From the NCBI GenBank assembly GCA_913063225.1, contig CAJXYP010000009.1, forward strand, positions 27,719 to 91,718: a stretch of DNA of 64,000 nucleotides, written 5' to 3'. This document shows positions 13,763 through 58,466 of this stretch, piece after piece. The notes beneath the pieces are model-generated. The model searched no databases, was not told where the DNA came from, and was given only the letters and a program-made list of their open reading frames with translations. The DNA is from an uncultured Cellvibrionales bacterium. GTDB taxonomy: Bacteria; Pseudomonadota; Gammaproteobacteria; Pseudomonadales; GM7GCV1. Position 1 is the first letter of the stretch, and each line of letters begins with the position of its first letter. Both the position numbers and the translations under genes were made by a program.

Positions 13763-14746
13763 TTAGTTAGAAACTAACCTCATACTTAAGTCGGCATCTC
13801 TTATCGCAGTAGTTGATCCATCAGCCTGCTGGATTTGTAAAACGCCCTGGTCATCTACGCCTCCGCAAGTGCCGCGAATTTCATCGGTAGTTTGGCTGAA
13901 TAGCCTAACTTCTTCGCCTATATATAAACCGCGTGAATTCCAGGCCTCTTTGAAGGGCCCGAATCCCTGTTTTTCAAATTGCGGTAACAGGTCGATAAAG
14001 CCTTCGGTAATAAGCGCTGCCAGCTGATTGCGATCAACGGTATGCCCTAGCGCTTGAAGGTCGATCCAATCCTGATCTATAGCAGCCCTTTCATTCTCCA
14101 AAATATGATGATTGATGCCTACTCCGACGACTAAATCGCAAGCGCCACTGGCCTCTCCTTTAGCGGATACCAGCAGGCCACCAAGTTTTTTGTTGTTTAG
14201 GTAAATATCGTTTGGCCACTTAATTTTTACATGGGCAACGCCGCATATTTCCAATGCCTCAGCAACTACCAAACCCGACAATAAACTGACTGCAGATAAT
14301 GAACTTGGCCAGTTGGAAAAGCGCCAAGCCAGAGAAAACATAAGGTTCCGATAGGCCGTACTGTGCCACTGGCGTTCGCGGCGTCCACGTCCGGCAAGCT
14401 GTGCCTCGGATACACAGACAACCGCTTGGTCCTGATGGAATTCCTGATCCAAAAGCCACTGATTTGTGGACTCGATTTGTTGATGGATGTGGATCTTCAC
14501 CAACTGATCAAGGTGCTTTTCATCGATGTAAGCTTCGATGGATTGGCGATTGAGGAGAATTACTCCTTCATCCAATCGATATCCCTTTCCGGCCACAGAG
14601 ATTAGCGGAAGACCTTTTTCTCGAAGGCTAGCCATATGTTTAGAAACAGCAACTCTGGAAATACCGAGTTCTTGGCCGAGCTTGTCGCCCCCATGGAATC
14701 CTGGGGTGCTCAATTGTTTGAGCAGGAATTTTTCTGTATCGGACAT
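13763..14746 (-). CDS. birA: Bifunctional biotin ligase / biotin operon repressor (class II, with wHTH)
   Basis: N-terminal HTH LGISRVAVSKH, STN, QLAGRGRR, KWPND, KKLGGLL. Confidence 0.95.
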   Translation of the reverse strand: MSDTEKFLLKQLSTPGFHGGDKLGQELGISRVAVSKHMASLREKGLPLISVAGKGYRLDEGVILLNRQSIEAYIDEKHLDQLVKIHIHQQIESTNQWLLDQEFHQDQAVVCVSEAQLAGRGRRERQWHSTAYRNLMFSLAWRFSNWPSSLSAVSLLSGLVVAEALEICGVAHVKIKWPNDIYLNNKKLGGLLVSAKGEASGACDLVVGVGINHHILENERAAIDQDWIDLQALGHTVDRNQLAALITEGFIDLLPQFEKQGFGPFKEAWNSRGLYIGEEVRLFSQTTDEIRGTCGGVDDQGVLQIQQADGSTTAIRDADLSMRLVSN

Positions 14747-14856
14747 TTAGTTTTTTTGGCTTGGCCATGGAGTTAGTGGGTTGCAGCCTAGCGTGGATTG
14801 TGATGATTTTGTGAGTTTTCTTGGTTGGCTCATGCCTACGGCGGGTGTTGATTAAC

Positions 14857-14898
14857 ACTTAACCATTTCCACTGCCGTGGCAGCGGAAATGGTTAAGT
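14857..14898. repeat. 42-bp palindrome; short member of a dispersed repeat family
   Basis: ACTTAACCATTTCCACTGCC-GT-GGCAGCGGAAATGGTTAAGT (1 mismatch); matches the termini of the 33332-33589 element. Confidence 0.8.
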
Positions 14899-14975
14899 CG
14901 AGTGAATTACCATCAGTAAATTGAGAAACAAGTTACCCAAAAATTAGCGTCAACATGTGACGACAAAAAACAAGT

Positions 14976-15008
14976 CTGTTAACCTATCGACCAAGTTTCG
15001 GTTAACAG
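14976..15008. promoter_or_regulatory. BirA operator (bioO)
   Basis: CTGTTAACC-N15-GGTTAACAG inverted repeat 10 nt upstream of bioB; fits the proteobacterial TGTaAACC-N14..16-GGTTtACA consensus. Confidence 0.85.
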
Positions 15009-15018
15009 GTTACCTCCA

Positions 15019-16005
15019 ATGCCTTCGGCAAACCCGGTCCAATATATACAACCCATAAACCGCCATCAGTGGGGCCAGGCGGAAGTGGCTGATCTCTTCG
15101 CTCAACCCTTTATGGATCTGGTGTTTCAAGCGCAACAGGTACACCGCGAAAACTTTGAACCTAATCAGGTGCAATTGAGCACTTTGATTAGTATTAAAAC
15201 GGGAGCCTGCCCGGAAGATTGTGCCTATTGTCCGCAAAGCGCGCATTACGACACCGATCTGGAGAAAGAGAAGCTCCTACCCATTGCCGAAATATTGGAA
15301 GCCGCACAGAAAGCGGTTGATGCGGGTGCTACCCGATTTTGCATGGGCGCTGCCTGGCGTAATCCTTCTGATAGAGAGCTCCCACAAGTTTTGGCTACTA
15401 TTAGCGCGGTCAAGGAACTTGGTCTGGAAACCTGTGCCACGCTCGGCATGTTAAAACCTGAACAAGCGCATTTGCTTGCCGAAGCCGGTTTGGATTACTA
15501 CAACCATAATCTGGATACCTCTGAGAAATATTACGATCAAATTATTACTACCCGTACTTATCAAAACCGCTTAGATACGCTTCAATCGGTTCGCGATGCA
15601 GGTATGAATGTGTGTGCCGGTGGTATTGTTGGCATGGGTGAAGATGAGTCAGATCGAATTGGTCTTCTGAGAACCTTAGCTAACTTGCCAACCGCTCCGG
15701 AAAGCGTGCCGATCAATATGTTGGTGAAGGTACCCGGCACTCCACTAGAAGATGTGGCTGATCTAGACGACTTTGATTTTATTCGAACCATCGCCGTTGC
15801 CAGAATTCTTATGCCGCAATCGTATGTTCGGCTTTCTGCCGGTCGCCACGAGATGAATGATCAAATGCAGGCGCTTTGCTTTATGGCCGGCGCCAATTCG
15901 ATTTTCTATGGTGAGGAACTGCTTACCACGGAGAACGCTAGCAGCGATCACGACCGGCAATTATTTGATCGTTTAGGAATTAGCGCCGAAAAGGCGCAGC
16001 GTTAA
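15019..16005 (+). CDS. bioB: Biotin synthase
   Basis: Radical [34 protein letters not shown]. Confidence 0.98.
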
Positions 16006-16015
16006 TCGCTCCCTA

Positions 16016-17188
16016 ATGAATTGGCACCAGCAGCTTTCTTTAAGTTTGGAGCAAGCCGAATCCGATCATCTGCGCAGGTCCAGAAACCTATTGGACGGGC
16101 CTCAGGGGCCGAAAGTTCAGATTGACGGAGCTGAGCTCAGCAACTTCTGTAGCAACGATTATCTAGGCTTTGCAAGCCACCCCAAGATTAAAAAGGCGGT
16201 TATAGATGCGGCCAAAGAGTGGGGCGTCGGAAGTGGTTCATCGCATCTGGTTTGCGGACATCAGGGTCTGACAGAAAGCTTTGAACAGGATTTTGCCGCC
16301 TTTGTTGGTGCTGAGTCTGCGTTGCTTTTCTCAACCGGCTATATGGCAAACTTTGCCGTTCTTAATAGTTTTGTTGATCGCGACGCTCTGATTTTCCAAG
16401 ACAAATTCAACCATGCATCCCTGATTGATGCTGGTCGCTTGAGCCGCGCGGGCTTTAACCGATACCAACATGGCGACATGAATTACCTCGAGCAACAGCT
16501 CAAAGCAGCTGGCGAGAAACCGACTTTGGTGGCAACTGATGCGGTGTTTAGCATGGACGGAGATTTGGCTCCCCTTGAGCAGCTATCAGAGTTCTCTATG
16601 CGCTATGACGCACTAACTTATTTTGATGACGCTCATGGGTTTGGCGTACTTGGCAATCAGGGCAGGGGTAGTCTAAATTCCGTTGGCCTTGCTCCAACGG
16701 GGAATCGACTATTATTGGCCACTCTGGGCAAAGCGCTCGGCTCATTCGGCGCAGTAGTTGCGGGTGATAAGGTTTTTACCGACACGCTAATTCAAAAAGC
16801 ACGGCCCTATATTTACACAACCGCACTTCCGCCTACGGTAGTTGCCGCTAGCTCAGCGGCTTTGGGTCTAATGCAAGAAGAAGATTGGCGGTTCCAGCAT
16901 CTGCATAGCCTAATAAAAATATTCCGGAATTCCGTTGCTACCTTAGGCTTACATCTAATGGACTCGCAAACGGCGATTCAGCCTATTTTGGTTGGCGACA
17001 ATCAAGCTGCTTTAGATTGTTCCAACAAGCTTAAGGACCTGGGTTTTTTGGTAACCGCAATTCGCCCGCCAACGGTGCCGAATGGCACCGCTAGACTGCG
17101 TATTACGCTTTCGGCGGCGCATACCGAGGCCGATGTAGCAAGTTTGGTAGAGGCTCTGAAACAGCTACAAAAGAGTGACTTATTGTGA
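16016..17188 (+). CDS. bioF: 8-amino-7-oxononanoate synthase
   Basis: FCSNDYLG, NHASLIDA, FSMDGD, DDAHGFG, TLGKALG (PLP Lys), AIRPPTVP. Confidence 0.96.
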   Translation: MNWHQQLSLSLEQAESDHLRRSRNLLDGPQGPKVQIDGAELSNFCSNDYLGFASHPKIKKAVIDAAKEWGVGSGSSHLVCGHQGLTESFEQDFAAFVGAESALLFSTGYMANFAVLNSFVDRDALIFQDKFNHASLIDAGRLSRAGFNRYQHGDMNYLEQQLKAAGEKPTLVATDAVFSMDGDLAPLEQLSEFSMRYDALTYFDDAHGFGVLGNQGRGSLNSVGLAPTGNRLLLATLGKALGSFGAVVAGDKVFTDTLIQKARPYIYTTALPPTVVAASSAALGLMQEEDWRFQHLHSLIKIFRNSVATLGLHLMDSQTAIQPILVGDNQAALDCSNKLKDLGFLVTAIRPPTVPNGTARLRITLSAAHTEADVASLVEALKQLQKSDLL

Positions 17189-17967
17189 GCACCCCACAGG
17201 ATGCGGATCTGGTATTGCTGCACGGCTGGGGCACTCATTCCGGAGTTTGGGGTCAGGTGCGAAGCCAGCTAGATGCACAGAGCCTAGCCTTAGATTTTCC
17301 CGGCTATGGCACGCAGATCAAGCGCAAGTTTCCTGCTGATATTGATGTTCTTGCTCGCGATGTCCTTGATAGGGCTCCAGAGGTGGCAATTTGGGGTGGT
17401 TGGTCTCTGGGAGGAATGGTGGCATTGCGGGCCGCGACAATCGCTCCAGAGCGCGTCCGAGGCTTAATGTTGGTATGCAGCACTCCTAAGTTTGTTGCTT
17501 CTTCTGACTGGTCTGCAGGAACAGATATCGAGGTATTTGAGTCGTTTGCAGAAAGCTTAACCAAAGACTATGCGCGCAATTTGCGACGATTTTTATTGTT
17601 ACAGGCGGGAGACAGTAAGAGGGCTCGCCAATTCAGCGTTCCGATACGAGAAATAATTGAATCGGCGCCGCAGCCAAGCACTGAAACCCTGAATAATGGA
17701 TTAGCGCTGCTTAAGAATCTCGACATGCGTGAGCAGCTGGGTAAATTGGATATTCCCCTGCGATTAATATCCGGGCAAAAAGATCGAATTTGTCATCCGG
17801 ACGCTTCTAAGTGGTTCGCCGGCAAATTAGGCGGGCGGCATACTAAATTACCGTCGGGCCACGGGCCATTGTTGTCGCATCCGCAAGCATTGGCTGAAGA
17901 CCTTACCGCCTTGCTAAATGAGGTAATGGCACCCGCTGCCGGTAGAGCTTCTGCGACCCATAAATGA
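17185..17967 (+). CDS. bioH: Pimeloyl-ACP methyl ester carboxylesterase
   Basis: LVLLHGWG, GWSLGG nucleophile motif, GHGPLLSHP; operon position. Confidence 0.9.
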   Translation: MSTPQDADLVLLHGWGTHSGVWGQVRSQLDAQSLALDFPGYGTQIKRKFPADIDVLARDVLDRAPEVAIWGGWSLGGMVALRAATIAPERVRGLMLVCSTPKFVASSDWSAGTDIEVFESFAESLTKDYARNLRRFLLLQAGDSKRARQFSVPIREIIESAPQPSTETLNNGLALLKNLDMREQLGKLDIPLRLISGQKDRICHPDASKWFAGKLGGRHTKLPSGHGPLLSHPQALAEDLTALLNEVMAPAAGRASATHK

Positions 17968-18767
17968 TGCAGATAGATAAGGTACAAGTAGCCCGACAAT
18001 TTAGCCGTGCGGCGGCCGAATACCATAGTGCCTCACAAGTTCAGAATGATATGGCTTGTGAATTATTAACGCGTATTCCAGAACAGATGATTAGGCCCGC
18101 AAATATTCTAGATCTAGGCTGTGGTAGCGGTTTTTTGACCGGCTGTTTAATAAATAGATTCAGTGATGCGCAAGTTGTGGGGCTAGATATAGCGTCGGGA
18201 ATGCTGACGGCATCAACCTCCTATTTTGCTAAATCTTTAGCGCAGACCAGTTCTTCGCCTTTTTTGATTCAGGGAGATATGGAGTCATTACCCATTGCTT
18301 CACATTCTTTCGAACTTGTGGTCTCGAACGCCGCTTTGCAGTGGACCAATTATGCGGCCTCTATCGCGGAGGTTGAAAGAGTCCTGGTGCCTGGTGGTTT
18401 CGCGGTAATGGCCACTTTTGTAGAGGGTACTTTGGCCGAGTGGCGCAGAGCTTTGCAAAGTGCAGGCCTAAATCTGGTCCACGAAATGCTCGATCAAGAA
18501 TATTTGGAGATGACCGCTAAGCGAACTGGTTTTGAAATACTTGCTAGTGAGTCCATGGTGCATAGGCTTGCGCATACGGATATCGCAGATCTAATCAAGA
18601 GCACTAAGCGTATGGGCGCAACCAACGCGCTAAAAAATCGCAGCCGGGGGCTTATGGGGCGGGGAACATACGCGTCCTTGGTACAAGCCATTGAATTGGA
18701 ATACCCCCGCACCGAATATTATTCCAATTACCGAAGCGGCTATTTGGTGCTAAGGAAATCCGCATGA
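17964..18767 (+). CDS. bioC: Malonyl-ACP O-methyltransferase
   Basis: KVQVARQFSRAA, ILDLGCGSG, SNAALQW. Confidence 0.9.
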   Translation: MMQIDKVQVARQFSRAAAEYHSASQVQNDMACELLTRIPEQMIRPANILDLGCGSGFLTGCLINRFSDAQVVGLDIASGMLTASTSYFAKSLAQTSSSPFLIQGDMESLPIASHSFELVVSNAALQWTNYAASIAEVERVLVPGGFAVMATFVEGTLAEWRRALQSAGLNLVHEMLDQEYLEMTAKRTGFEILASESMVHRLAHTDIADLIKSTKRMGATNALKNRSRGLMGRGTYASLVQAIELEYPRTEYYSNYRSGYLVLRKSA

Positions 18768-19447
18768 AATTGGCTATCGACCCAGGTATCAATCAAACCA
18801 GTAACCTATCTGGGGAATTGCCAAGGCAGTTCTTTATAGCGGGCACGGATACCGATGTGGGTAAAACCTATGTATCACTAGAGCTAATACGATTCTTGGT
18901 CGAGAGCGGTGATCGAGTAGGTGTTATGAAACCGGTTTCTGCTGGATGTGAGTTGGTTGCAGGGCAGTGGCAGAACGCCGACGCATTGGCGCTAATGGAA
19001 GCTAGCAACCTGCAGCAATCCTATGCTGAAGTGAACCCCTATGCCTTTGAGTCGCCGGTTTCTCCGCATATTGCTGCCAAGATTTCCGCTACAACTATAG
19101 ACCTAAATCTTCTGTTGCAGACATTTGAGAAAATCAAAGCGCGTTCAGATTCGGTTTTGATTGAGGGCGCGGGTGGTTGGCTCGCTCCCATAAGCGAAAC
19201 CCAGAGCATGGCGGATATAGCCATAAAGTTAGATATTCCCGTGGTACTCGTAGTTGGCATTAAATTGGGTTGTTTAAATCACGCACAGCTTACGGCTCGG
19301 GCAATTAAAGACTCCGGCTTATCTCTTACTGGCTGGATCGCAAATGAGCTGGATCCGGAAATGTCCTATCCGGATGAAAATATCAAATGCTTAGCAGATC
19401 GGATAGATGCACCGCTAATTGCTCATATATCGCACAAAAATAATTGA
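18764..19447 (+). CDS. bioD: Dethiobiotin synthetase
   Basis: GTDTDVGKT, MKPVSAG, IEGAGG, KLGCLNHAQLT. Confidence 0.95.
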   Translation: MKLAIDPGINQTSNLSGELPRQFFIAGTDTDVGKTYVSLELIRFLVESGDRVGVMKPVSAGCELVAGQWQNADALALMEASNLQQSYAEVNPYAFESPVSPHIAAKISATTIDLNLLLQTFEKIKARSDSVLIEGAGGWLAPISETQSMADIAIKLDIPVVLVVGIKLGCLNHAQLTARAIKDSGLSLTGWIANELDPEMSYPDENIKCLADRIDAPLIAHISHKNN

Positions 19448-19531
19448 TTTTTGTAGTTTAGCTTGTTGGCTATTGGCAGTTTCCTGCATACACTGGTCCG
19501 AAATAAAAAAAGATACTGCCTAAAACCGTGA

Positions 19532-20647
19532 GTGGACAAATGGATCCGGGTGCGCAGCGCACCTGAAGCAGCAAGAAATGCGGCGTTGTACGAAAAGATT
19601 TCAGGCTTACTCAGTCTGGGTGCGGCTATCTGCTTTTTGGTACGTTTACAAATTGCCCCGGTATCAGATACCACTACCATTGCTTCGTCTTTGGTGTGCG
19701 TCATTATTTTTATCGTCTATATCTGCATCAAGCGGCAGTGGGCGGCGCACTTTTCTGGCGTGTTACTGGTAATGGCCTGGGTGGCCTCTCTGCTGCTAGT
19801 GGCAGCCCTTAAGGACGGCAGCAACAGCCCAGTAATGGTATTGGCGCCAATCACCCCATTAATGGCCGCCATTCTAAGGGGCAAGGATTGGGGTTGGTAT
19901 TCCTCGATCGTTATAGTTCTGGCGATATTCATATTTGGTGCATTGGAAGAGCGTGGTTACTACGCCGATGCTTCGTCTTTATATGCTCACCTCGAATTAG
20001 ATCTTTATGAATTTTGGTTGATATTAGCGGTATTGATTGGTGCTTTAATCGGGCATCACCTGGCCACAGAAAATACTCGTCTTAGTGAAACACTTCGACA
20101 CCATGCGCGAGTGGATTTCCTTACCGGTATACCAAACCGCATGTCGATTAATGAAGCGCTTAATAACGCCGCCAGAGAGTCCAAACGCAATACCAATTGG
20201 ATGTCGGTGATGATGATTGATATCGATAATTTCAAGATCTACAACGACGTCAATGGCCACGCCGCTGGAGATAAGGTACTGCGGCAAGTAGCGCAAGCCT
20301 TTAAAGATGTGCTCAATCGCCCCTATGATTTTGTTGGCCGCTATGGCGGTGAGGAGTTTTCGGTCATCTTGCCCAAGACTGATCCAGAGGGGGCTCGGTT
20401 TGTGGCGGAGCGATTGCGTTTAGCGGTAGAAAAACTAAAAATACCCTATCGAGCCAGCAAAAAAGAAGAGGTGATAACCGTTACAGTGGGTTTGGCATCT
20501 GCTCCCGGGGCCTTGGATGGTCGTGGCGATAAATTGATTAAAGAGGCCGATTCAGCGCTATATACCGGTAAAGAGTACGGGCGCAATCGAGTAATTCCGA
20601 CGGTCTTAGATCAGGCAGGCAATCTATCTACGGGAGGGCCTGATTAG
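19532..20647 (+). CDS. Membrane-bound diguanylate cyclase
   Basis: ~5-6 TM helices, then DFLTGIPNR, DIDNFKIYND, I-site RPYD and intact GGEEF. Confidence 0.92.
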   Translation: MDKWIRVRSAPEAARNAALYEKISGLLSLGAAICFLVRLQIAPVSDTTTIASSLVCVIIFIVYICIKRQWAAHFSGVLLVMAWVASLLLVAALKDGSNSPVMVLAPITPLMAAILRGKDWGWYSSIVIVLAIFIFGALEERGYYADASSLYAHLELDLYEFWLILAVLIGALIGHHLATENTRLSETLRHHARVDFLTGIPNRMSINEALNNAARESKRNTNWMSVMMIDIDNFKIYNDVNGHAAGDKVLRQVAQAFKDVLNRPYDFVGRYGGEEFSVILPKTDPEGARFVAERLRLAVEKLKIPYRASKKEEVITVTVGLASAPGALDGRGDKLIKEADSALYTGKEYGRNRVIPTVLDQAGNLSTGGPD

Positions 20648-20676
20648 CCCAAGCGTCCTAGTCTGGATTGATAGGT

Positions 20677-21282
20677 TTAATCGAGATTGCTAGCAGAAAC
20701 ATTGAGGTCTTTGATTAGGCCGTTCTGCAAGCTATATACCCATCCATGCACACTAATCTGTTGGCCGCTGTCGGCAGCTTCCTTCAGATATTGGTTTTGT
20801 AATAGCGTGGTCACCTGATCTTCAACGTTCATTTCGCAGACTCGATTGACCCAGTCTTTCTGGTTATCAAAATCTGACTGTAGGCATTTTTTGTCTAAGG
20901 CGAGCGCACGTATGGGCGAGACCCAGTCCCTTAGGGGGCCATCAGTACTGCGCGTCAGCGCAGCGCCAACGCCACCGCAATCGTGGTGACCACAGACAAT
21001 AATATGCTTAACCTTCAGAGAGAGAACCGCGAATTGCACAACCGCAAGGATGTTGCGGTCGGTATTTTCAACTCGGTTTGATACGTTGCGGTGAACAAAT
21101 ACTTCGCCCGGAGCAAGTCCAGTTATAACGTTTGCCGGAACGCGACTGTCAGAGCAGCCTATCCATAAATATTTGGGACGCTGCTGCGCAGCCAATCGTT
21201 CAAAGAATTTCGAATCTTCCTGTTGGATCTTGCCTGCCCAGCGCGCATTGTTATCCAGTAGATCACTAATAGAATCTGACAT
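20677..21282 (-). CDS. can: Beta-class carbonic anhydrase
   Basis: WIGCSDSRVP, GEVFVHRNV, CGHHDCGG zinc ligands. Confidence 0.95.
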   Translation of the reverse strand: MSDSISDLLDNNARWAGKIQQEDSKFFERLAAQQRPKYLWIGCSDSRVPANVITGLAPGEVFVHRNVSNRVENTDRNILAVVQFAVLSLKVKHIIVCGHHDCGGVGAALTRSTDGPLRDWVSPIRALALDKKCLQSDFDNQKDWVNRVCEMNVEDQVTTLLQNQYLKEAADSGQQISVHGWVYSLQNGLIKDLNVSASNLD

Positions 21283-21365
21283 AGGTAACTTTATCCCCCT
21301 AATTTGGGACGGATTGTAAGGTAATTGTTGTCTGGTATCAGCAGCAATCTACATCTAAAAGCCAC

Positions 21366-21394
21366 AAAAAAGGCCGGCAATATGCCGACCTTTT
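21366..21394 (-). terminator. Rho-independent terminator after the carboxylase gene
   Basis: Minus strand AAAAGGTCGGCA-tat-TGCCGGCC-TTTTTT. Confidence 0.8.
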
Positions 21395-21415
21395 ATAGCG
21401 GGGGTATCTACAGGG

Positions 21416-24400
21416 TTAGCTAGGACGAACCACAAAAAGTAAATCGCCGGAATTAACCTGAGCTCCATTGGCTTGATTAAGGCGAACCACCTCATAGTTT
21501 TGATCCGCCTGAAACAATTCTCCTGCGCCAATAACGCTGGAAAGCGAAATCTGGGAAAACAGCTTCATCGCTTCTATCTGGCAGAGCGCCGAAGACAGGT
21601 TGATCTGACTGCCAATTTCGACATACTCGGGATCGTTCGGAGAGGGCGTTGAATAATAAATACCGGTCATTGGCGCCAGAACCTTAAGCTCGTTGGTGCC
21701 TTCGATACGCAGGGAGTCGAGACTGGTAGCAGCGGTGTCTACCCCGGTATAGGCCATTTCCACGATCAATTTATCACTATTCAAGCTCTTCAGGAATTTC
21801 GGTAGATAGCCTGTGTCGTACTTACCCTTCACAAAAGTTGGGTCAACCAATATTCGTTTCAATAAAGGGATATTGGTACAAACGCCCTTAATGCTAACTT
21901 CTGCCAATACCTCTAATAGTTTTGCGATAGCGTCGTTGCGGTCTTTCCCGTGCACAATAAGTTGCGCGATCATGCTGTCATAGAAAGGAGAAATGGTTTT
22001 CCCCTCGTCGACTGCAGATATGATTTCTATATCATCTCTCTCGGGGAATCGGCACTCGGTAACCAATCCTGGAGTGGGAATAAAGTCGAATTCACCTTCA
22101 TCATTTAGCTTGGCTTTCTCGGCAGTAATTCTCGCCTCAATCGAAAAGCCATTGTCGCCAATTTTCAAATCGGCAATAGAGCCGCCTTCGGCAATATTAA
22201 ACTGCTGCTCGACAATCTGAACACCAGAGGTCCACTCGGTGACAGGATGTTCTACCTGTAAGCGAGTATTCATTTCCATAAAGTAAATGGTTTTGTTTTT
22301 TAGATCGTAGATAAACTCAACGGTACCAGCGCCAATATAATCTACCGCATCAGCCAGTTTTCTTGCGCTACTAAAAGCTCTTTTGGCTAGGGCTGCGGTC
22401 AACATAGTAGAACCAGATTCTTCCAGTACCTTTTGATTATTGCGCTGAACAGTACAGTCTCTCAAGCCTATAATTTGCGTATTTCCGTGGCTGTCTCGAA
22501 GAATTTGAATCTCAATATGACGCATAGATTCAACAAATTTCTCCAAATACAGATCGCCATTTCCAAAAGCAGATTTAGCCTCAGCAAAAACCCGATTAAA
22601 TGCAGTCTTTACTTCCGAAGCTTCACGAACTATTTGAATACCCTTACCGCCACCGCCGTGAACCGCTTTTAGCAATACCGGATAACCGATTTCATCCGCC
22701 ACTTTCGCGGCGACACTTGCGGTAGCAAGAATGCCGTGGCTGCCGGGTACAACCGGCACGTCGTTAGCCATGGCCGTATGGATAGCAGTGGACTTGTTGC
22801 CCATCTGGTCCATGCTCTGTGCACGAGGGCCCAAAAAGTTGAGTCCTCTAGCGCGACACAAACGCGCAAATCCAGCATTTTCAGACAGGAAACCAATGCC
22901 TGGGTGTAATGAATCGGCGCCTTGGCGCGCAGCGATAGCTAACACGGAATGAGCGTTCAAATAGCTCTCATCTGGCGTTTGTCCACCGAGACACACAAGC
23001 TCATCATTTTCGTCCAGCATGCTCGCTGGTGCCGAATCCATATCCGGATCCGATTGCACCAGTAATACGCGTTTGCCTAATTTTTTAGCAACGCGGATAA
23101 GTTTAGTAGCCGTACAACCGCGAGCGTGGATCAAAACGGTTTCTATGGGGCGCATAAGATCACGCGCTTGCGCTGGTTCCGGAATATCGGCAGCAGCCTG
23201 AGTATCTACTCGACCCGCCAGAGTCTTCTCTAGCACGTCTTCAATAGATTCTTTTGGTACTGCAATGTCAGGATCAATTTTGCGCAGCTGGGCATCTAAG
23301 TCATCAGCAAAGGGATGTTTCACAATGCCGTGCATCGCCCCTTCGTTTTTCACCAAGTAGTTAGACACGGTGCACATAGAGGGCAAGAAAGAGGGCACTA
23401 CCACTCGACCCGCGAAGGGTAAGTCAGTGCCACTCAGGTAATAGGTTTGCACCAATGGGTGAGTCACAAAGCTTGCCTGTGAACCACCGGTACAGTCACC
23501 GAAGCCAAATACGATTACCGGCAATCCGGTTTCGCAAACGAAGCGTGTGATGCGGTCATTAACAATGGCCATGGAGAAAAGTGCATTTGCGCCTTCTTTG
23601 GTTTGCATTCCGCCGGATGAAACAAAACAAACTAAAGGTAAGTTCTGCTGAGCACAGGTAACCATTAGGTCACACATTTTTTCAGCACTGGCCATATCAA
23701 AGGCGCCAGCCTGGAATGAGACATTGGAGATAACCGTACCTACTCGAGGCGAACCTTCAATGTTCAGGTTGCCGATGCCGGAAATTACGCCACAGGGCGT
23801 AACCTTATTGTTGAGGGCTTTTTCAATGGAAATCCGGAATCCGGGAAAAGACACCGGGTTTGCCGTCATTAGATCAGCGTTGGTTTCCTCAAAGTTTGAG
23901 AAGAACTTCTCCTGAAATGCCTTTGCCGTAGTAACTTTTTTACGCTTGAGCGTATCCAGGGTTTTTTGAACTAGTAGATCACGATAAGCGATATTTAGCT
24001 GGTTCCAGAAATCCTTGCGCTTGCCAATGCGAACCGGGTTTATTTCGCCCTGATAGGTCTTGCCTTGAAGTTGCGAATTTAAATATTCGGGTACCAGCTC
24101 TTCAAAGAAGAAGGTGATTAGCACTAATAGCGCATCAGACAGCCGTGGAAAAATAACGCGCTTCCATTCCTCTACTTCTTTAAGGAAATCACCGCGGCGT
24201 CTATAACCAACAAAGCTGTTTAACCAGCGGGCAAATTGGCCAGATTTTATTTCGGCAGAAGCGGAGTTATCCATAGAGGCAACGTGTGCCGTGGCGTTTT
24301 CAATCGAGCTATCCAGAATACGCTTCAATGATTCAGCGCTTAGGGTATGGAACTCTCTAGTTTCTGCGGCGATTTCGCCAAAGTTGCTAACGATGCTGTC

Positions 24401-25963
24401 GTAGAGCGCATTGAAAATCAGAATGTTTTCGAACTGAGATAGAAAATGCGCCTTCAGATCTGAATTGAAAATAATTTCTGAAATGGTGAGATCTGTTTCG
24501 GCTATCTCGTAGATCTTAGAATTACCACCTTCAGAATCTTTAACCAACTGAGATAGTTTGACGAAGTTAAATTCACAATCCGCTTTCCAGCGGTTGTACA
24601 AGTACAGCGTGGTGCGAAAACAAAGTTTTTGCCGCGCATCTTCGAAATTTTTCTGCGGGTCACCTAACAGCAGGGTAGTAAATCGACCACGCTCTGCAGA
24701 TAGTTCGTTGCGTTTTTCTTTGTAAGATTTCCAGGCTCTAAACAGGTCGTCCTGATATATAAGTTTTTCCGGATCACTGTTCCAGCGCTCGAACCCTTCT
24801 TCCCGGGCCTTTTGCGTTCTGTCGCTTAGGTCACCTTTGGGGATTTCTTGTTTCGATAAACGGCCATAGGCATCGGTCGTGGAAGACATAATCCGTGTAC
24901 GCATAGTCAAGTAGCGTTGATGACGGCATGCGTGAGCAAAGATATTTGGATATTCAGTCGGGAAATCTTCCACATGGAAGTTGGCGACTTTTTGCAATTT
25001 GGTGAAGTTCTCATCCGGGTGCAGAAATCGCTGCACCTGAGTTATATAGTCTTCTGAAATATCGCCCTGGGCGCCGACCATATCAACACAGATGTTTTCA
25101 ATGGCATTGATGCCAGTGAGGATAGCGCTGACCAGCGGCTCTATGCCTATGCTAGAGTCAGCCGGAGCCCAATCGATAATTCCGTCGAGCACGCCGCGGT
25201 GGTTTAGCTCGGCGGGACTAATGCCAACATAGCGAGCGCTTTCCTGCCAGGACAAATTGTATTGGCGAGCAATGCTAGCAAGGCCCTTAGGCTGAATAGT
25301 ATTGAAAACCCCGGTCCGGACCGAGAGAAGAATATTGGTAGCCGCTAGTGGTATAGCTCCGCCGGAATACCCAAGACCATAAACGATGCCTACGGTTGGA
25401 ACATGTGTATTGGTCATTTCGGCAATCAGGCGCGAAATAGCGTGCGCCTGATTGTTTTCATTCGCTTCGGCACTGGCGTCTGCTCCCGGTGTATCCATAA
25501 AGGTAACAATGGGAATATTGCGGCGATTAAATATTCGTACCAGGCGAGCGGCTTCCAGATGGTGTTCTGGTTTCCACACGCCATTGCCAACGCTGCGGTT
25601 TTGCGCAATAACGCCAATACGCCGGCTGCCATGAACAGAATCTACGGCAATTTCCACGGCGTAGAGGGGGCCCATATCAACTTCGTTATAGGTCTTGCCG
25701 TTGATCATGCGCACGACATTGCGTGCGCTTACCATGGTATTTGATTCCGCGGGTTCTAGAACCCGGGCGATGTAATCATCTACGGACAAGTTCTTTAGAA
25801 TATCCAGCTCTTTGGCAACGGATTTCTCGGACATTAAGCCCTGAATTTTTCCTTCCCAATTAAATGGGCGCGTGCCCGATCCAACTTTAAAATCTCGCAC
25901 TTTTTGCTCAACAGTAGTGAACAGGCTGTCTTTTGCGGCCGATGCTTTGTTTGTTGCCGGCAT
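21416..25963 (-). CDS. Single-chain multidomain biotin-dependent acyl-CoA carboxylase (AccA-like CT, helical region, AccD-like CT, biotin carboxylase, BCCP)
   Basis: aa ~115-265 IPIVTFMDTPGA / GYSGGA (AccA-like); aa ~690-860 FQAGAFD / SSGGMQTKEG / CTGGSQASF / FAGRVV (AccD-like); aa ~940-1400 HPGIGFLSENA, KAVHGGGGKGI, RHIEIQ, EMNTRLQVEHPVTE (AccC-like); C-terminal APMTGIYYSTPSP..IEAMKL (AccB-like). Confidence 0.9.
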   Translation of the reverse strand: MPATNKASAAKDSLFTTVEQKVRDFKVGSGTRPFNWEGKIQGLMSEKSVAKELDILKNLSVDDYIARVLEPAESNTMVSARNVVRMINGKTYNEVDMGPLYAVEIAVDSVHGSRRIGVIAQNRSVGNGVWKPEHHLEAARLVRIFNRRNIPIVTFMDTPGADASAEANENNQAHAISRLIAEMTNTHVPTVGIVYGLGYSGGAIPLAATNILLSVRTGVFNTIQPKGLASIARQYNLSWQESARYVGISPAELNHRGVLDGIIDWAPADSSIGIEPLVSAILTGINAIENICVDMVGAQGDISEDYITQVQRFLHPDENFTKLQKVANFHVEDFPTEYPNIFAHACRHQRYLTMRTRIMSSTTDAYGRLSKQEIPKGDLSDRTQKAREEGFERWNSDPEKLIYQDDLFRAWKSYKEKRNELSAERGRFTTLLLGDPQKNFEDARQKLCFRTTLYLYNRWKADCEFNFVKLSQLVKDSEGGNSKIYEIAETDLTISEIIFNSDLKAHFLSQFENILIFNALYDSIVSNFGEIAAETREFHTLSAESLKRILDSSIENATAHVASMDNSASAEIKSGQFARWLNSFVGYRRRGDFLKEVEEWKRVIFPRLSDALLVLITFFFEELVPEYLNSQLQGKTYQGEINPVRIGKRKDFWNQLNIAYRDLLVQKTLDTLKRKKVTTAKAFQEKFFSNFEETNADLMTANPVSFPGFRISIEKALNNKVTPCGVISGIGNLNIEGSPRVGTVISNVSFQAGAFDMASAEKMCDLMVTCAQQNLPLVCFVSSGGMQTKEGANALFSMAIVNDRITRFVCETGLPVIVFGFGDCTGGSQASFVTHPLVQTYYLSGTDLPFAGRVVVPSFLPSMCTVSNYLVKNEGAMHGIVKHPFADDLDAQLRKIDPDIAVPKESIEDVLEKTLAGRVDTQAAADIPEPAQARDLMRPIETVLIHARGCTATKLIRVAKKLGKRVLLVQSDPDMDSAPASMLDENDELVCLGGQTPDESYLNAHSVLAIAARQGADSLHPGIGFLSENAGFARLCRARGLNFLGPRAQSMDQMGNKSTAIHTAMANDVPVVPGSHGILATASVAAKVADEIGYPVLLKAVHGGGGKGIQIVREASEVKTAFNRVFAEAKSAFGNGDLYLEKFVESMRHIEIQILRDSHGNTQIIGLRDCTVQRNNQKVLEESGSTMLTAALAKRAFSSARKLADAVDYIGAGTVEFIYDLKNKTIYFMEMNTRLQVEHPVTEWTSGVQIVEQQFNIAEGGSIADLKIGDNGFSIEARITAEKAKLNDEGEFDFIPTPGLVTECRFPERDDIEIISAVDEGKTISPFYDSMIAQLIVHGKDRNDAIAKLLEVLAEVSIKGVCTNIPLLKRILVDPTFVKGKYDTGYLPKFLKSLNSDKLIVEMAYTGVDTAATSLDSLRIEGTNELKVLAPMTGIYYSTPSPNDPEYVEIGSQINLSSALCQIEAMKLFSQISLSSVIGAGELFQADQNYEVVRLNQANGAQVNSGDLLFVVRPS

Positions 25964-26323
25964 AACTGGTTTTTCTCCGTACTTTTTGGGAAATAACGTG
26001 TACCGCTTGGGAAGCGGTCAATTATCTATCTTATAGGGTATGCAGTATCAGGCTCAGTGCGCCAACTGTCTAGTTTTAGCGGGCAAGATTGCTCTAGTGT
26101 TGACGGCAAATAGACGACTATCTCTGAGCCGCGTTCCCGATCGCCATTATAAGTCCATTTTCAGTCTATTTCGGATACAAAAGATGGGTGCCCCATAGGC
26201 AAAAACTATACCCCTTTTCCTGTACAAGCCTGTGCTTGTCCGGTGCATAAGTTGTGCATAGATTTCATTGGTCACGCCAGCAGTGGTTTTGCGCGGTAGT
26301 GAGACACCCCGGTTACCCCCAAT

Positions 26324-26370
26324 ACACAAGATATAGTGCCAAATTGAAATAATTTATCTATATATGGTGT
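26324..26370 (+). promoter_or_regulatory. Tandem NrdR boxes
   Basis: ACACAAGATATAGTGC (26324-26339) and TATCTATATATGGTGT (26355-26370), 31 bp apart, matching acaCwAtATaTwGtgt upstream of an RNR gene. Confidence 0.88.
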
Positions 26371-26437
26371 TTTTAACTTGTGTGAAGCCGCAAGTTGAAT
26401 CAGTATATCGGACTCGAAAAACGTCTTATATGGGGAA

Positions 26438-28588
26438 ATGATGGGAGAAGTAGCCAAGGTTCTGAAGCGCAGTTCAGAGATTGAAATGCAGTCGACTTCG
26501 CTTGATATATGGGACAAAAAGTATCGTCTTAAAGATAGAGCCGGTGAACCGATTGATCGAGACATCGCCGATACCTTTAAGCGTGTCGCTACGGCGCTTT
26601 CCGGGGTGGAAAAAACCAAAGCCAAACAAAAACAGTGGTACGAACGCTTTTTGTGGGCTTTAGATAATGGTGCACTTCCCGCTGGCCGCATTATTTCTAA
26701 TGCCGGTGCTCAAGCATACAAGCCTGCGACCTCAACCATTAACTGTACGGTTTCAGGAACCATTTCTGATTCCATGCACGAAATTCTCGACAAAAATTAC
26801 GAAGCGGGCATGACCCTAAAGGCGGGCTGTGGCATCGGTTACGAATTTTCGACGTTGCGCCCCAAAGGTGCTTACGTCTCTGGCGCCGGAGCCTATACCT
26901 CTGGGCCACTGTCCTTTATGGATATCTACGACAAAATGTGTTTTACCGTGTCTTCTGCCGGTGGTCGTCGTGGTGCTCAAATGGCGACTTTTGATATTAA
27001 CCATCCAGATGTGATGGACTTTATTCGTGCCAAGCGCGAAGACGGTCGGTTACGCCAGTTCAATTTATCCCTGCTTATAACCACCGAATTTATTGAAGCG
27101 GTTAAAAATGATGGGGATTGGTGTTTGAGCTTCCCGGTTTCGCAAAAAGAAGCGGACGAAGCAGGTCTGGATTTGAACGATCCAGCGCAAGTGGTATGGC
27201 GGTCTTTCCCCGCGACCAAAGACTATATAACCAACGATACGGGCATGGTTGCTTGCCGCATCTACAGCACTATTCGTGCCCAGCGTTTGTGGGACGTAAT
27301 TATGTCTTCCACCTATGACTTTGCTGAGCCCGGTTTTATCTTGATCGACAAAGTTAATGAGATGAACAATAACTGGTGGATCGAAGACATTCGGGCCACT
27401 AACCCCTGTGGTGAGCAGCCTTTGCCGCCCTACGGAAGCTGCCTACTCGGCTCGGTGAATTTGACCAGGTTGGTGCTGGATCCCTTTACTGAGAATGCCC
27501 GATTTGACTGGGAAAGATATCGCGAAGTGGTAGCAGTATTTACCCGCATGTTGGATAACGTTGTTGAAATCAATGGCTTGCCTTTAGATAAGCAGCGCCA
27601 TGAGATTGAATCCAAGCGTCGTCATGGCATGGGCTTTTTGGGCTTAGGATCTACGATGACTATGCTCGGCATGAGCTATGGCGATGACAAATCCGTAGAT
27701 TTCACCGATCAGATTGCCCGTGAAATGGCGGTTGTCGGCTGGCAACAAGCACTAGAGCTTACCGAAGAAAAAGGTGCCGCTCCGGTAATGAGTGATGAAT
27801 TCGAAGTTACCTCAGCCATGCTGGCCGCTCGCCCGGAAATGACAAAAGACGGTATTAAAGTTGGTGATAAAGTAGCCGGTAAAGTCCTGCACGCTCGCTA
27901 TAGCCGCTACATGCAGCAGATTGCAGAAATTGAACCTGAGCTCGTTGACCAGTTGGCAGAGAAGGGGGCTCGGTTTAGTCACCATAGCTCAATTGCGCCA
28001 ACGGGTACCATCTCACTATCTCTCTCAAATAACGCCAGCAACGGCATTGAGCCAAGCTTTGCACATCACTATTCTCGCAATGTGATTCGAGAGGGGCGTA
28101 AGACCAAAGAGAAAGTAGATGTATTTTCTTTTGAACTGTTGGCCTATCGAACCTTGGTAAATACCAAAGCCATGCCCACTAGCCAAGACGAAGGTGAAAA
28201 GTTGCCGGACTATTTTGTGGTTTCTGACAACATCACGCCTAAGCAACACGTAGATATTCAGGCGGCGGCGCAAAAGTGGGTAGATTCTTCTATCTCAAAA
28301 ACTGCCAACGTACCCACCGATCACCCCTACGAAGATTTCAAGGATATATACCTCTATGCGCACGAGAAAGGTCTCAAAGGTTGTACGACATTCCGCTTTA
28401 ACCCAGAGGCGTTCCAGGGTGTTCTTGTTAAAGAAGAAGATCTTGAAAACACCCTATACGAATTCACCCTCGAAGATGGCTCCACGATAGAGCTCAAGGG
28501 TAACGAAATGGTCGATTACGACGGAGAAACTCACACAGCTGCCAACCTCTTTGATGCGCTGAAAGAAGGTTACTACGGCAAATTCTAA
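26438..28588 (+). CDS. nrdJa: Adenosylcobalamin-dependent (class II) ribonucleotide reductase, large chain
   Basis: PAGRIISNAG, STINCTV, GGRRGAQM, ATNPCGEQ thiyl-radical Cys, IAPTGTISL; lacks the C-terminal Cys-containing domain. Confidence 0.93.
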   Translation: MMGEVAKVLKRSSEIEMQSTSLDIWDKKYRLKDRAGEPIDRDIADTFKRVATALSGVEKTKAKQKQWYERFLWALDNGALPAGRIISNAGAQAYKPATSTINCTVSGTISDSMHEILDKNYEAGMTLKAGCGIGYEFSTLRPKGAYVSGAGAYTSGPLSFMDIYDKMCFTVSSAGGRRGAQMATFDINHPDVMDFIRAKREDGRLRQFNLSLLITTEFIEAVKNDGDWCLSFPVSQKEADEAGLDLNDPAQVVWRSFPATKDYITNDTGMVACRIYSTIRAQRLWDVIMSSTYDFAEPGFILIDKVNEMNNNWWIEDIRATNPCGEQPLPPYGSCLLGSVNLTRLVLDPFTENARFDWERYREVVAVFTRMLDNVVEINGLPLDKQRHEIESKRRHGMGFLGLGSTMTMLGMSYGDDKSVDFTDQIAREMAVVGWQQALELTEEKGAAPVMSDEFEVTSAMLAARPEMTKDGIKVGDKVAGKVLHARYSRYMQQIAEIEPELVDQLAEKGARFSHHSSIAPTGTISLSLSNNASNGIEPSFAHHYSRNVIREGRKTKEKVDVFSFELLAYRTLVNTKAMPTSQDEGEKLPDYFVVSDNITPKQHVDIQAAAQKWVDSSISKTANVPTDHPYEDFKDIYLYAHEKGLKGCTTFRFNPEAFQGVLVKEEDLENTLYEFTLEDGSTIELKGNEMVDYDGETHTAANLFDALKEGYYGKF

Positions 28589-48776: not shown

Positions 48777-48929
48777 ATGTGCGGGATTGTAGGTGTGGTC
48801 GCAGAGCGGCCGATCATAGAGATCTTAATTGAAGGCTTAAAGCGCCTAGAGCACTGCGGCTATTATTCGGCAAGTAGCGTGGCAGTTTTTCACCGAGAAA
48901 ACTTGTCTCAGTTGCTGGTCGTAAACTAA
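48777..48929 (+). pseudogene. glmS: Truncated, decayed glmS 5' fragment (50 codons)
   Basis: [37 protein letters not shown].. then stop; the invariant LEYRGYDSAG motif is degraded. Confidence 0.85.
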
Positions 48930-48932
48930 TTC

Positions 48933-50255
48933 ATGAGAATTTCGATTAAGGTTAAGAACTCAGCCTTAAATATGGTAGGCGGCGCTCTGCCTGGTCTTAT
49001 AGGATTGGTGGCTCTTCCCGAAATTCTCGCAGAGCATGGAGACGTCTTTCTGGGCATTTATATGCTACAGATAGCACTACTTTTCGTGCTTAGCCTAACA
49101 GACCTGGGTGTTTCGAGAGCAATGATGCTTGTTAAATTCGACGAGCAAGTTAATCCAGGCGCAATGATTGGGCCTCCATTTGCTGTAGCAAAGGCACTGG
49201 TATTTAAGTTGTCTATTTGGTCAGCATTAGTTGTCGGGCTGATAAATGTCCTTTTTCTATCACAGTCTAATCAAAATGATATTGCCGTAGCTAACTTTGC
49301 ATTAATAATGGCTGGCCTTATATCATTAAATACACTTCCACATAGAGGTGTTCTGGAGCTCGAGGGGCGATTCCTGCTACTGAATGTGATTAGAGGGCTC
49401 AGTGCATGCGTCATCTATGTTGCGCCTCTTATGTTCGACAAAAATACAAGTGATTTATTCTTAAAGACTGCCCTCGTTATACTGTGTGCTCGGATAGTGA
49501 CTTACCAAGCTTATCGCGTTGTCACGTTAGGCCAATCAAAAATTTATAGTAGCGATATGATTTTAGAGCTAAAGGGGGTCATGTTTAGCAGAGCTAAGTG
49601 GGTTGGCTTGACTAATATTTTGTCATTGGGCCTCACATTTGTAGATCGCTATATCGTTGCTGTGGTTGTATCAGTGGGAGCAGTTGCTAGCTACACGCTT
49701 GCAACAGAGCTTAGCACCAAGGTTTGGCTGATTACAGGGGCTGTAATGTCTGCAGTCAATCCTGGTATCGCAAGCAATTACTTTTCCAAACTCAATCCTG
49801 GTGATTCGATGATTCGAATAGAAAAGTGGATTGTATATTTTAGTATCATTTTCCCAGTGATCCTATTTATTTTAAACTCTCAAAGGCTCGTTGAATTATG
49901 GCTGAAGGATAGTCTGGCAGAGAGTGTCGGGTATATTGCTGTAATTCTTTTGGTTGGAATTTCAGTAAATTCACTGTCACAGCTAAATTTCACCTTACTC
50001 CAATTGGCTGGTCGTGAAAAAGTTGGAGCATACCTTCAGATTTATGGTTTTTTTGGGTTGGTGGTGATGGCGTCGATTCTAGGGTTTACATATGGAGTTG
50101 TCGGAGTAGCCTGTGCATTTTCACTTCGGTTGATTTTAGATGCGCTAGCAGTCTCTTACCTGGTTAGCCTTGAAAAGAGTATTAAGAAGCCCATTTCTAT
50201 ATATGAATTGATGTTTGTTGTATTTTCTTTAAGCACATTGGTGGTCACATTATGA
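48933..50255 (+). CDS. wzx: Wzx flippase
   Basis: KNSALN start, DLGVSRA, VDRYIV, ~12 TM segments. Confidence 0.85.
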   Translation: MRISIKVKNSALNMVGGALPGLIGLVALPEILAEHGDVFLGIYMLQIALLFVLSLTDLGVSRAMMLVKFDEQVNPGAMIGPPFAVAKALVFKLSIWSALVVGLINVLFLSQSNQNDIAVANFALIMAGLISLNTLPHRGVLELEGRFLLLNVIRGLSACVIYVAPLMFDKNTSDLFLKTALVILCARIVTYQAYRVVTLGQSKIYSSDMILELKGVMFSRAKWVGLTNILSLGLTFVDRYIVAVVVSVGAVASYTLATELSTKVWLITGAVMSAVNPGIASNYFSKLNPGDSMIRIEKWIVYFSIIFPVILFILNSQRLVELWLKDSLAESVGYIAVILLVGISVNSLSQLNFTLLQLAGREKVGAYLQIYGFFGLVVMASILGFTYGVVGVACAFSLRLILDALAVSYLVSLEKSIKKPISIYELMFVVFSLSTLVVTL

Positions 50256-51049
50256 ATAGTTGTAATTTTAAAAATTTAAAAGTAAGTGAGGAGCAGCAGA
50301 ATTCTTACTCTTCAGCTAGCCCGTTCCCCCATATATTTATTGACGATTTTTTAACGAACGATCGTTATTCTGAGTTGGCTGAGCAATTTCCTGGTGTGAC
50401 TGATACTACTTGGTACAAGTTCCGATCTGCGATGGAGAACAATAAGCGAAATAGTACTGATCTAGAATCCTTGCCAAGCTGTTTCCAGGAGGTCATGAGA
50501 GATTTTAATGGTTCTGAGTTCATAAAGTATTTAGAGGAGATGACAGGTATTACAGGATTGATTCCAGATCCTGAATTTCTTGGAGGAGGGCTACATAAAA
50601 CTGGAATTGGGGGTAAGTTAGGCATGCATATAGACTATAATTTACACCCTACTCTAAAGCTTGATAGACGCCTAAATGCAATTCTATATTTGAATGATTA
50701 TTGGGAGGACTCCTGGGGCGGAAGTTTAGAGCTCTGGAATGAGAATGTCACAGAATGTGTTACGAAAATCTCTAATAAAGGTAATCGATTGGTCATCTTT
50801 AATACGGACGAGAGAAGTTGGCATGGTCATCCCAATCCACTTGCATGTCCTGAAGACGTTTATAGGCACTCAATCGCATTTTATTATTACACTGAAGGGC
50901 GGCCAGCGAATGAAATTGCTCCTGAGCACAATACAATTTTCAAACTTCGTTCTGGGGAGGTTTTAAAACATACAGTTTATGATCGGTTATTGGTGCTAAT
51001 ACCTTCGTTTGTGAGAAATTTTTTACGTAAAGTTAAAGGAATGCTGTAA
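50252..51049 (+). CDS. 2OG-Fe(II) oxygenase (prolyl-hydroxylase-like)
   Basis: PFPHIFIDDFL, GGGLH, HID (HxD), RRLNAILYLN..WGGSLELW, SWHG, RHSIA. Confidence 0.88.
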   Translation: MNSCNFKNLKVSEEQQNSYSSASPFPHIFIDDFLTNDRYSELAEQFPGVTDTTWYKFRSAMENNKRNSTDLESLPSCFQEVMRDFNGSEFIKYLEEMTGITGLIPDPEFLGGGLHKTGIGGKLGMHIDYNLHPTLKLDRRLNAILYLNDYWEDSWGGSLELWNENVTECVTKISNKGNRLVIFNTDERSWHGHPNPLACPEDVYRHSIAFYYYTEGRPANEIAPEHNTIFKLRSGEVLKHTVYDRLLVLIPSFVRNFLRKVKGML

Positions 51050-53255: not shown

Positions 53256-53287
53256 AAAGATAACTGGGGCAAGGAGCATAGGATACT

Positions 53288-54112: not shown

Positions 54113-54286
54113 AGTCATTTTTTATGCTCCAAATTAGATGTTGGTTTCGCAATTCCTCACCCAAATAGTCTGATTAAAGGCTAGTCGAAAGTGATTGCTC
54201 TCTACCGACGCCATTGCTCTGGTGCCTTAGCAGAGATGATGTAGTTTTTAAATTGGGAAGTTTTTAGTTAACTATCACGGAAGTAA

Positions 54287-55375: not shown

Positions 55376-55417
55376 TAACAAATTCATTTCATGGTCATTA
55401 GTTAAAGGATCGTATCG

Positions 55418-56296: not shown

Positions 56297-56317
56297 TTTT
56301 ACTATAGGAAATTAATA

Positions 56318-58460: not shown

Positions 58461-58466
58461 AGCTCT

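Follow-up and report, generated by a model that had tools for sequence, protein, structure and literature searches.

A minus-strand gene, accS, in the 64,000-nucleotide stretch of DNA analysed here (the window) encodes a 1515-residue polypeptide that carries, in one chain, an AccA-like and an AccD-like carboxyltransferase (CT) domain, a biotin carboxylase (BC) and a biotin carboxyl carrier protein (BCCP). With a probability that we put at roughly 0.93, this protein is the orthologue of AccS (AccADCB) of Shewanella oneidensis and the sole acetyl-CoA carboxylase (ACC) of its bacterium, feeding type II fatty-acid synthesis with malonyl-CoA. The architecture of the enzyme is not new, because a homologue with the same domain order already has a name, a genetic study and a cryo-EM structure. 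What remains as a lead is a small open reading frame (ORF) for the N-terminus of AccB at the site where accBC would normally lie.

The single-chain enzyme and its Shewanella homologue

The gene and its domains are as follows.

21416..25963, minus strand: accS, putative single-chain acetyl-CoA carboxylase of 1515 aa, coordinates given with the stop codon (ORF list, translation, end-to-end alignment with 9kkm_A)
25094..25756, minus strand: CT-alpha-like (AccA-like) domain, about aa 70-290 (Pfam, NCBIfam, PDB AccA chains)
23897..25093, minus strand: central region, about aa 291-689 (unmatched by Pfam; helical throughout in the AlphaFold2 model)
23264..23896, minus strand: CT-beta-like (AccD-like) domain, about aa 690-900, without zinc ribbon (TIGR00515, PDB AccD chains)
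21785..23146, minus strand: BC domain, aa 940-1393; its MNTRLQVEHP motif contains E1238 (Pfam trio, accC models)
21419..21739, minus strand: BCCP domain, aa 1409-1515, K1467 codon at 21563-21565 (TIGR00531, EAMKL motif)

The minus-strand frame at 21416-25963 translates into 1515 aa without a stop, and coding on the plus strand was ruled out, its translation being full of stops. An earlier note on this DNA, which named no strand, had described one uninterrupted ORF of this length with AccA-like, AccD-like, BC and BCCP regions; the ORF was borne out, and the positions given for the domains proved right to within about 20 residues in the Pfam and NCBIfam scans.

The AccA-type nature of the N-terminal part, also claimed in that note, is upheld by matches to Pfam ACCA (aa 127-264, E 1.5e-27) and NCBIfam AccA_sub (aa 118-288). 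Pfam Carboxyl_trans was matched over two stretches (E 6.8e-23), one of them aa 70-231, and the CT-alpha-like domain matched AccA chains in the PDB with E values of 5.9e-18 to 2.7e-15. The CT-beta-like domain matched TIGR00515 (accD) over aa 690-883 (E 9.9e-12), covering only profile positions 71-265, that is, the profile minus its zinc-ribbon part, and matched the PDB AccD chains 2f9i_B (E 4.6e-12) and 9m70_A (E 1.1e-8). A motif scan of the whole 1515-aa protein returned no CxxC, in agreement with the earlier remark that the AccD-like half shows no N-terminal Cys4 zinc ribbon. Between the two CT halves, no Pfam or NCBIfam family matched aa ~291-689 in either scan; many residues of this central region are invariant in an alignment of 14 homologues.

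The BC region carries the full Pfam trio of Biotin_carb_N (940-1051), CPSase_L_D2 (1057-1263) and Biotin_carb_C (1276-1388), and was matched by NCBIfam accC models with E values of 1e-135 to 1e-146, including aa 941-1392 at E 1.7e-135. TIGR00531 (BCCP) was matched at aa 1409-1473 (E 1.8e-13). The motif scan placed EAMKL at aa 1464-1468, with K1467 as its lysine, and E1238, A1465, M1466 and K1467 are invariant across the 14 homologues.

When PDB sequences were searched with phmmer, a single full-length match was obtained, to a 1517-aa chain present in entries 9KKM and 9W4A under the name 'Acetyl-CoA carboxylase multifunctional enzyme AccADCB'. Query residues 10-1514 align with residues 15-1514 of 9kkm_A at 1633.8 bits. 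The title of 9KKM, released on 2025-11-19, describes a cryo-EM structure of the acetyl-CoA carboxyltransferase holoenzyme dimer of Shewanella oneidensis, mutant E1238A. Over the last 365 residues the two proteins are in register, E1238 standing opposite the alanine of the mutant and EAMKL opposite EAMKM.

A similar picture was obtained from structure. An AlphaFold2 model of residues 1-935, built from the 14-sequence alignment, had a moderate mean pLDDT of 73.9 and a pTM of 0.66, with helices throughout 275-687, mostly at pLDDT 70-90. In a Foldseek search of the PDB the top match of this model was again 9kkm_A (E 4e-67, TMq 0.88, rmsd 3.4, 923 columns, 45% identity); the second-ranked matches, AccA chains, reached a TMq of only 0.22. 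The superposition on 9kkm_A takes in the stretch of about 275-687 that has no Pfam family. In genomic loci of Shewanella abyssi and S. algicola, AccS is 50% identical to the present protein across residues 2-1514.

The S. oneidensis enzyme was named AccS (SO_0840) in PMC4793157, where that organism is described as having no AccABCD homologues, AccABCD having been replaced by AccS, and as retaining an additional AccB gene, SO_0511. Reports on AccS date from papers of 2016, 2023 and 2024. SO0840 is given in PMC10470608 as one of two proteins naturally biotinylated in vivo, and PMC11602165 (2024) reports a biotinylated band near 170 kDa, describing accS as encoding a multiple-domain ACCase with a domain order unlike that of eukaryotic ACC. 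According to the same paper, AccR, a LysR-type activator of accS, is encoded divergently from accS in Shewanella, and growth of an accR mutant, in which AccS is low, was restored either by accS or by accA together with accD and accBC from E. coli. Single-chain ACCs of Shewanella and other gammaproteobacteria are also mentioned in PMC12362589. The 'accADCB' of a Berkiella paper is just a listing of four genes. The earlier view that no characterised enzyme of this architecture was known is therefore refuted by SO_0840 (PMC4793157, PMC11602165, PDB 9KKM/9W4A).

The present protein and S. oneidensis AccS are alike in length (1515 and 1517 aa), domain order and collinearity, and AccABCD appears to have been replaced in both organisms (PMC4793157 for Shewanella). 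They differ in sequence, identity to Shewanella AccS being only about 50% for the genomic loci and, when residues 1-935 are aligned by structure, 45%.

The heteromeric AccABCD of the E. coli type shares its four catalytic modules, and presumably both half-reactions, with AccS, but it consists of four chains with a zinc ribbon on AccD, whereas AccS is a single chain without this ribbon and has a helical insert of about 400 aa separating its CT halves. The AccB N-terminal domain of the heteromeric enzyme lies outside the AccS chain, since the BCCP profile matches just from position 63-64 on. Eukaryotic ACC, the bacterial long-chain acyl-CoA carboxylase (LCC; 5fif is the CT of 'a single-chain bacterial carboxylase') and the multidomain ACC reported from Saccharopolyspora (PMC6491548) resemble AccS in being one polypeptide with a tethered BCCP. 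Eukaryotic ACC and LCC run BC, BCCP, a central part where present, and then CT, with the beta-like half before the alpha-like half; AccS is the opposite in both orders. The earlier note had remarked on both reversals. The placing of CT first with BC and BCCP last was confirmed by the Pfam and NCBIfam matches, and the alpha-like-then-beta-like order by half-matches to PccB-type chains: the C-terminal half of such chains (1vrg 287-450) is matched by AccS 71-230 and their N-terminal half (3n6r_B 89-195) by AccS 720-831, so the CT halves of AccS are permuted relative to single-chain CTs. The BC domain scored higher in phmmer against the Staphylococcus BC 2vpq (374.6 bits) than against the E. coli BC 1bnc (318.3 bits); by these scores it shows no particular closeness to AccC of E. 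coli.

From the domains and the homologue, a working mechanism may be proposed. BirA would biotinylate K1467 in the C-terminal BCCP, and the BC domain (940-1393, with E1238 as catalytic residue) would carboxylate the biotin using ATP and bicarbonate. The BCCP would then swing to a CT site formed between the AccA-like (~70-290) and AccD-like (~690-900) domains, where the carboxyl group would be transferred to acetyl-CoA. The helical region of about 275-687 may connect the CT halves and serve as their scaffold. By analogy with the Shewanella cryo-EM structure, the enzyme probably works as a homodimer, which would recreate an alpha2beta2 CT together with a BC dimer. That this AccS is active, accepts acetyl-CoA and forms a dimer is what we infer.

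Probable displacement of AccABCD

The genome that carries the window is a draft of 2.26 Mb in 32 contigs, 96.81% complete. Searched with the accA and accD models, it gave the present ORF as the sole match above noise. The accC model matched AccS, two parts of one 1076-aa frame, which its size suggests to be a carbamoyl-phosphate synthase, and one further sequence at E 3.5e-4. The BCCP model matched AccS, the oxaloacetate decarboxylase alpha subunit OadA beside OadB, two further weak candidates and a 38-residue N-terminal piece. The suggestion in the earlier note that the fused carboxylase replaces accABCD is thereby supported, AccS being the only match of the accA, accD, accC and BCCP models above noise. 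Malonyl-CoA must be required, because fabD is present above cut-off. The interval from aroQ, which encodes a class II dehydroquinase, to prmA, which we take to be the normal accB-accC position in gammaproteobacteria, is assembled and holds only a remnant of the AccB N-terminus, so accBC has evidently been deleted and is not simply unassembled.

A sample of 201 genomes from the same order was surveyed for AccS, with its residues 1-935 as the query (E <= 1e-30), and for accA, with the accA model at E <= 1e-40. AccS was found in 29 genomes, belonging to 20 of the 111 genera, and accA was present in 178 and absent from 23. All 23 genomes without accA were AccS-positive (20 were listed directly and three, G575, G576 and G580, were identified by elimination), and accA was present in every one of the 172 AccS-negative genomes; as relatives are not independent, this comparison is not a statistical test. 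The genomes with AccS and without accA span seven families. They include all five genomes of the family to which the present one belongs, among them G489, which consists of one contig. Within a single genus of another family, G436 has AccS without accA and G483 and G527 have accA without AccS. This complementarity, with whole families switched and species differing within a genus, is clean evidence, from comparison of genomes, that a single polypeptide can take the place of the four-subunit enzyme.

At the level of the class, AccS was found in five of 400 sampled genomes, the present genome counted. A database search gave 1273 matches as 90%-identity clusters, a number that is not a family count, since the limit of E 0.001 can also admit proteins from other families that contain a BC domain; the best 120 of them are 1477-1536 aa long and 59-94% identical, with 96-100% query coverage. 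At the level of 50%-identity representatives, 90 matched residues 1-935 at E <= 1e-30, of which about 16 were at least 1400 aa long and the shorter ones were mostly fragment-like. A scan of contigs for a BC motif gave five full-length AccS genes and one partial gene among the 80 loci listed; the other 74 would seem to be accC genes or acc clusters from other phyla. AccS thus occurs more widely than in the 'small number of genera' mentioned in PMC11602165.

Several variants were seen in these surveys. Longer frames of 1600-1666 aa, with an insert in the central helical region near residue 478-490, occur in several families (loci L109-L116 and L128-L132, in G427, G449, G450, G426, G007 and others). 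In a metagenome-assembled genome (MAG) labelled Desulfuromonadales (L016, 6001-10438), an AccS-type gene is split into ORFs of 792 and 732 aa with the break near 730-766; the cause may be a frameshift, a genuine split of the gene or an error in sequencing. In a MAG labelled Acidobacteria (L017), only AccS residues 903-1514 are encoded before the contig ends. Four genomes of one family (G446, G493, G534 and G572) carry accA together with a divergent AccS-like gene of about 1505-1547 aa that is 35-39% identical to residues 1-935; this copy may be a paralogue with another substrate.

Several observations weigh against AccS as the sole ACC here. Six of the 29 AccS-positive genomes (G403, G446, G486, G493, G534 and G572) also have accA, so AccS is not always a substitute for the canonical enzyme. 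The Pfam Biotin_lipoyl match is weak (aa 1428-1473, E 0.0039, 17.4 bits with a cut-off of 22.1) and all NCBIfam acc matches lie under their equivalog cut-offs, which marks the domains as divergent. The specificity for acetyl-CoA is derived from the domains and the homologue. No AccR-type LysR gene adjoins accS in the window, the best match in the genome being 28% identical and on another contig. In addition, our literature search found no primary publication for 9KKM/9W4A; EMD-62392/9KKM is cited by one methods preprint.

Some of these points would also suit an AccS that is not the housekeeping ACC but a carboxylase for another acyl-CoA, such as propionyl-CoA or one with a longer chain, or for some other substrate. 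Its CT domains are indeed distant from AccA and AccD (E 1e-11 to 1e-32, under the equivalog cut-offs), and in four of the six genomes with both genes, AccS is represented only by the divergent copy, which could be a paralogue. We nevertheless regard this alternative as improbable. The present genome shows no other BC-containing carboxylase or CT, yet its fabD needs malonyl-CoA; AccS presence and accA absence are complementary across the order; and low AccS in Shewanella was compensated by E. coli accABCD (PMC11602165).

It is less probable still that AccS is accessory and that a canonical accABCD lies in the unassembled part, about 3%, of a draft genome in 32 contigs (96.8% complete). The aroQ-prmA site of accBC is assembled, with only the 56-codon AccB-N ORF in it, and the four other genomes of the family, one-contig G489 included, have AccS in every case (4/4) and accA in none (0/4). 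Moreover, the E. coli acc genes are reported to occupy three separate genomic sites (PMC11602165), so that more than one locus would need to be absent from the assembly. Nothing was found in favour of the long ORF being an assembly chimera or a set of misjoined genes, and such an origin can practically be dismissed, as the best 120 relatives share its length and come from independent sources, the alignment with the solved 1517-aa chain is collinear and the GC content around accS (0.476-0.478) agrees with that of the flanks.

The gene also has a practical side: a compact, natural one-gene bacterial ACC is of interest for malonyl-CoA supply in engineered strains.

The AccB N-terminal ORF at the former accBC site

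The remnant between aroQ and prmA is an ORF of 56 codons on the minus strand of another contig of the same genome (C19, locus L008, 1447-1614), outside the window. Full-length AccB is matched at its N-terminus by the first ~35 residues of this ORF, whose stop falls in what would be the linker. S. oneidensis differs in this respect, a full-length AccB being reported there (PMC4793157), whereas the present genome has the N-terminal 56 codons alone.

Related genomes show the same site in different states. In G486 and G238, accB is directly followed by an accC-like ORF. In G450 a full-length accB is kept, preceded by an ORF with an aroQ-like end, and an ORF of 300 aa stands at the accC position; to judge from the position and size of these ORFs, accB was apparently retained and accC lost. 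Stubs were found in G443, of the same genus (55 aa, between aroQ and prmA), in G569 (59 aa, at a contig end) and, independently, in G436, of another family (63 aa, with flanks taken as aroQ and prmA by size and position). In G489, G531, G427 and G449, aroQ abuts prmA with no stub, and in G454 the roughly 190 nt between the two genes hold no AccB-N ORF. The accB locus therefore shows graded states, from intact genes through loss of accC and an N-terminal stub to complete absence. Since two genomes of the family are without the stub, AccS cannot require it.

Over the first 36 codons, the stubs of G000 and G569 have 13 identical codons, 22 with synonymous differences only and one with a nonsynonymous difference; the AccS proteins of the same two genomes are 71% identical. 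This codon pattern is a clear sign of purifying selection on the stub. The G443 stub is more diverged, 14 of the 36 codons being nonsynonymous.

Work on E. coli AccB (bioRxiv 10.1101/2024.05.28.596234) reports that residues 1-68 alone can repress accBC, that removing the initial 58 residues nearly abolishes activity, and that the opening ~30 residues are modelled as a motif for oligomerisation. It may tentatively be suggested that AccS-type bacteria keep a free AccB-N microprotein, not as debris but as a regulator or assembly factor, either for AccS or for the prmA operon; we consider this possible but rather doubtful. A complex prediction for the AccS BC domain (936-1400) with the 56-aa AccB-N peptide returned a score of 0.00 (mark 0.32), which weighs neither for nor against binding.

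Neighbourhood and regulation

The other genes around accS in the window are given below.

20677..21282, minus strand: beta-class carbonic anhydrase (Pfam Pro_CA, E 1.6e-49)
19532-20647: GGDEF gene, between the bio operon and the carbonic anhydrase gene
15019..19447, plus strand: biotin synthesis operon, bioB-bioF-bioH-bioC-bioD (Pfam, in order: Radical_SAM and BATS; Aminotran_1_2; alpha/beta hydrolase; methyltransferase; AAA_26)
13763..14746, minus strand: birA, biotin protein ligase with N-terminal helix-turn-helix (Pfam BPL_LplA_LipB, HTH_11, BPL_C)

The carbonic anhydrase gene shares its strand with accS and lies 133 nt downstream, and its product may possibly supply AccS with bicarbonate. 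The two genes adjoin in three of the five family genomes (convergently in one) and in none of 15 loci outside the family. A role as conserved operon partner was accordingly rejected, and the adjacency is best regarded as local synteny. Genes for the ribonucleotide reductase large subunit and a TSCPD-domain protein are found divergent and upstream of accS in all five family genomes.

The bio operon and birA are divergent, and the birA product is a ligase and likely also a repressor. The names in the bio operon were assigned from Pfam families and gene order; no bioA was seen in the biotin cluster of the window (13763-21282). In G443, a birA homologue stands directly beside the carbonic anhydrase gene and accS.

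The Shewanella locus has the divergent LysR gene accR, a trait of that locus and not one that defines the enzyme family, whereas the neighbours here are the carbonic anhydrase gene, the bio operon and birA. Among the loci surveyed, the only ones with a divergent LysR gene next to accS were L012 and L015, both from Shewanella, and L127 of G436. As AccR is not adjacent and its best match in the genome is only 28% identical, regulation appears to differ from that in Shewanella, and AccR-type control was rejected for the present gene, which has neither an adjacent LysR gene nor a close AccR homologue in the genome. A scan of 20400-26500 for promoters and terminators gave 10 and 9 sites, respectively, compared with 8.8 and 6.9 in shuffled sequences, and thus did not rise above the shuffles; it has no bearing on whether accS and the carbonic anhydrase gene form an operon.

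Elsewhere in the window, positions 48900-60200 have a GC content of 0.40-0.42, compared with about 0.47 in the rest, a strong GC skew and surface-polysaccharide genes on one strand. These encode glycosyltransferases of families 1 and 2, two 2OG-Fe(II) oxygenases, Polysacc_synt_2 and RmlD-like proteins and a UDP-GlcNAc 2-epimerase; together they probably form a variable island for O-antigen or capsule.

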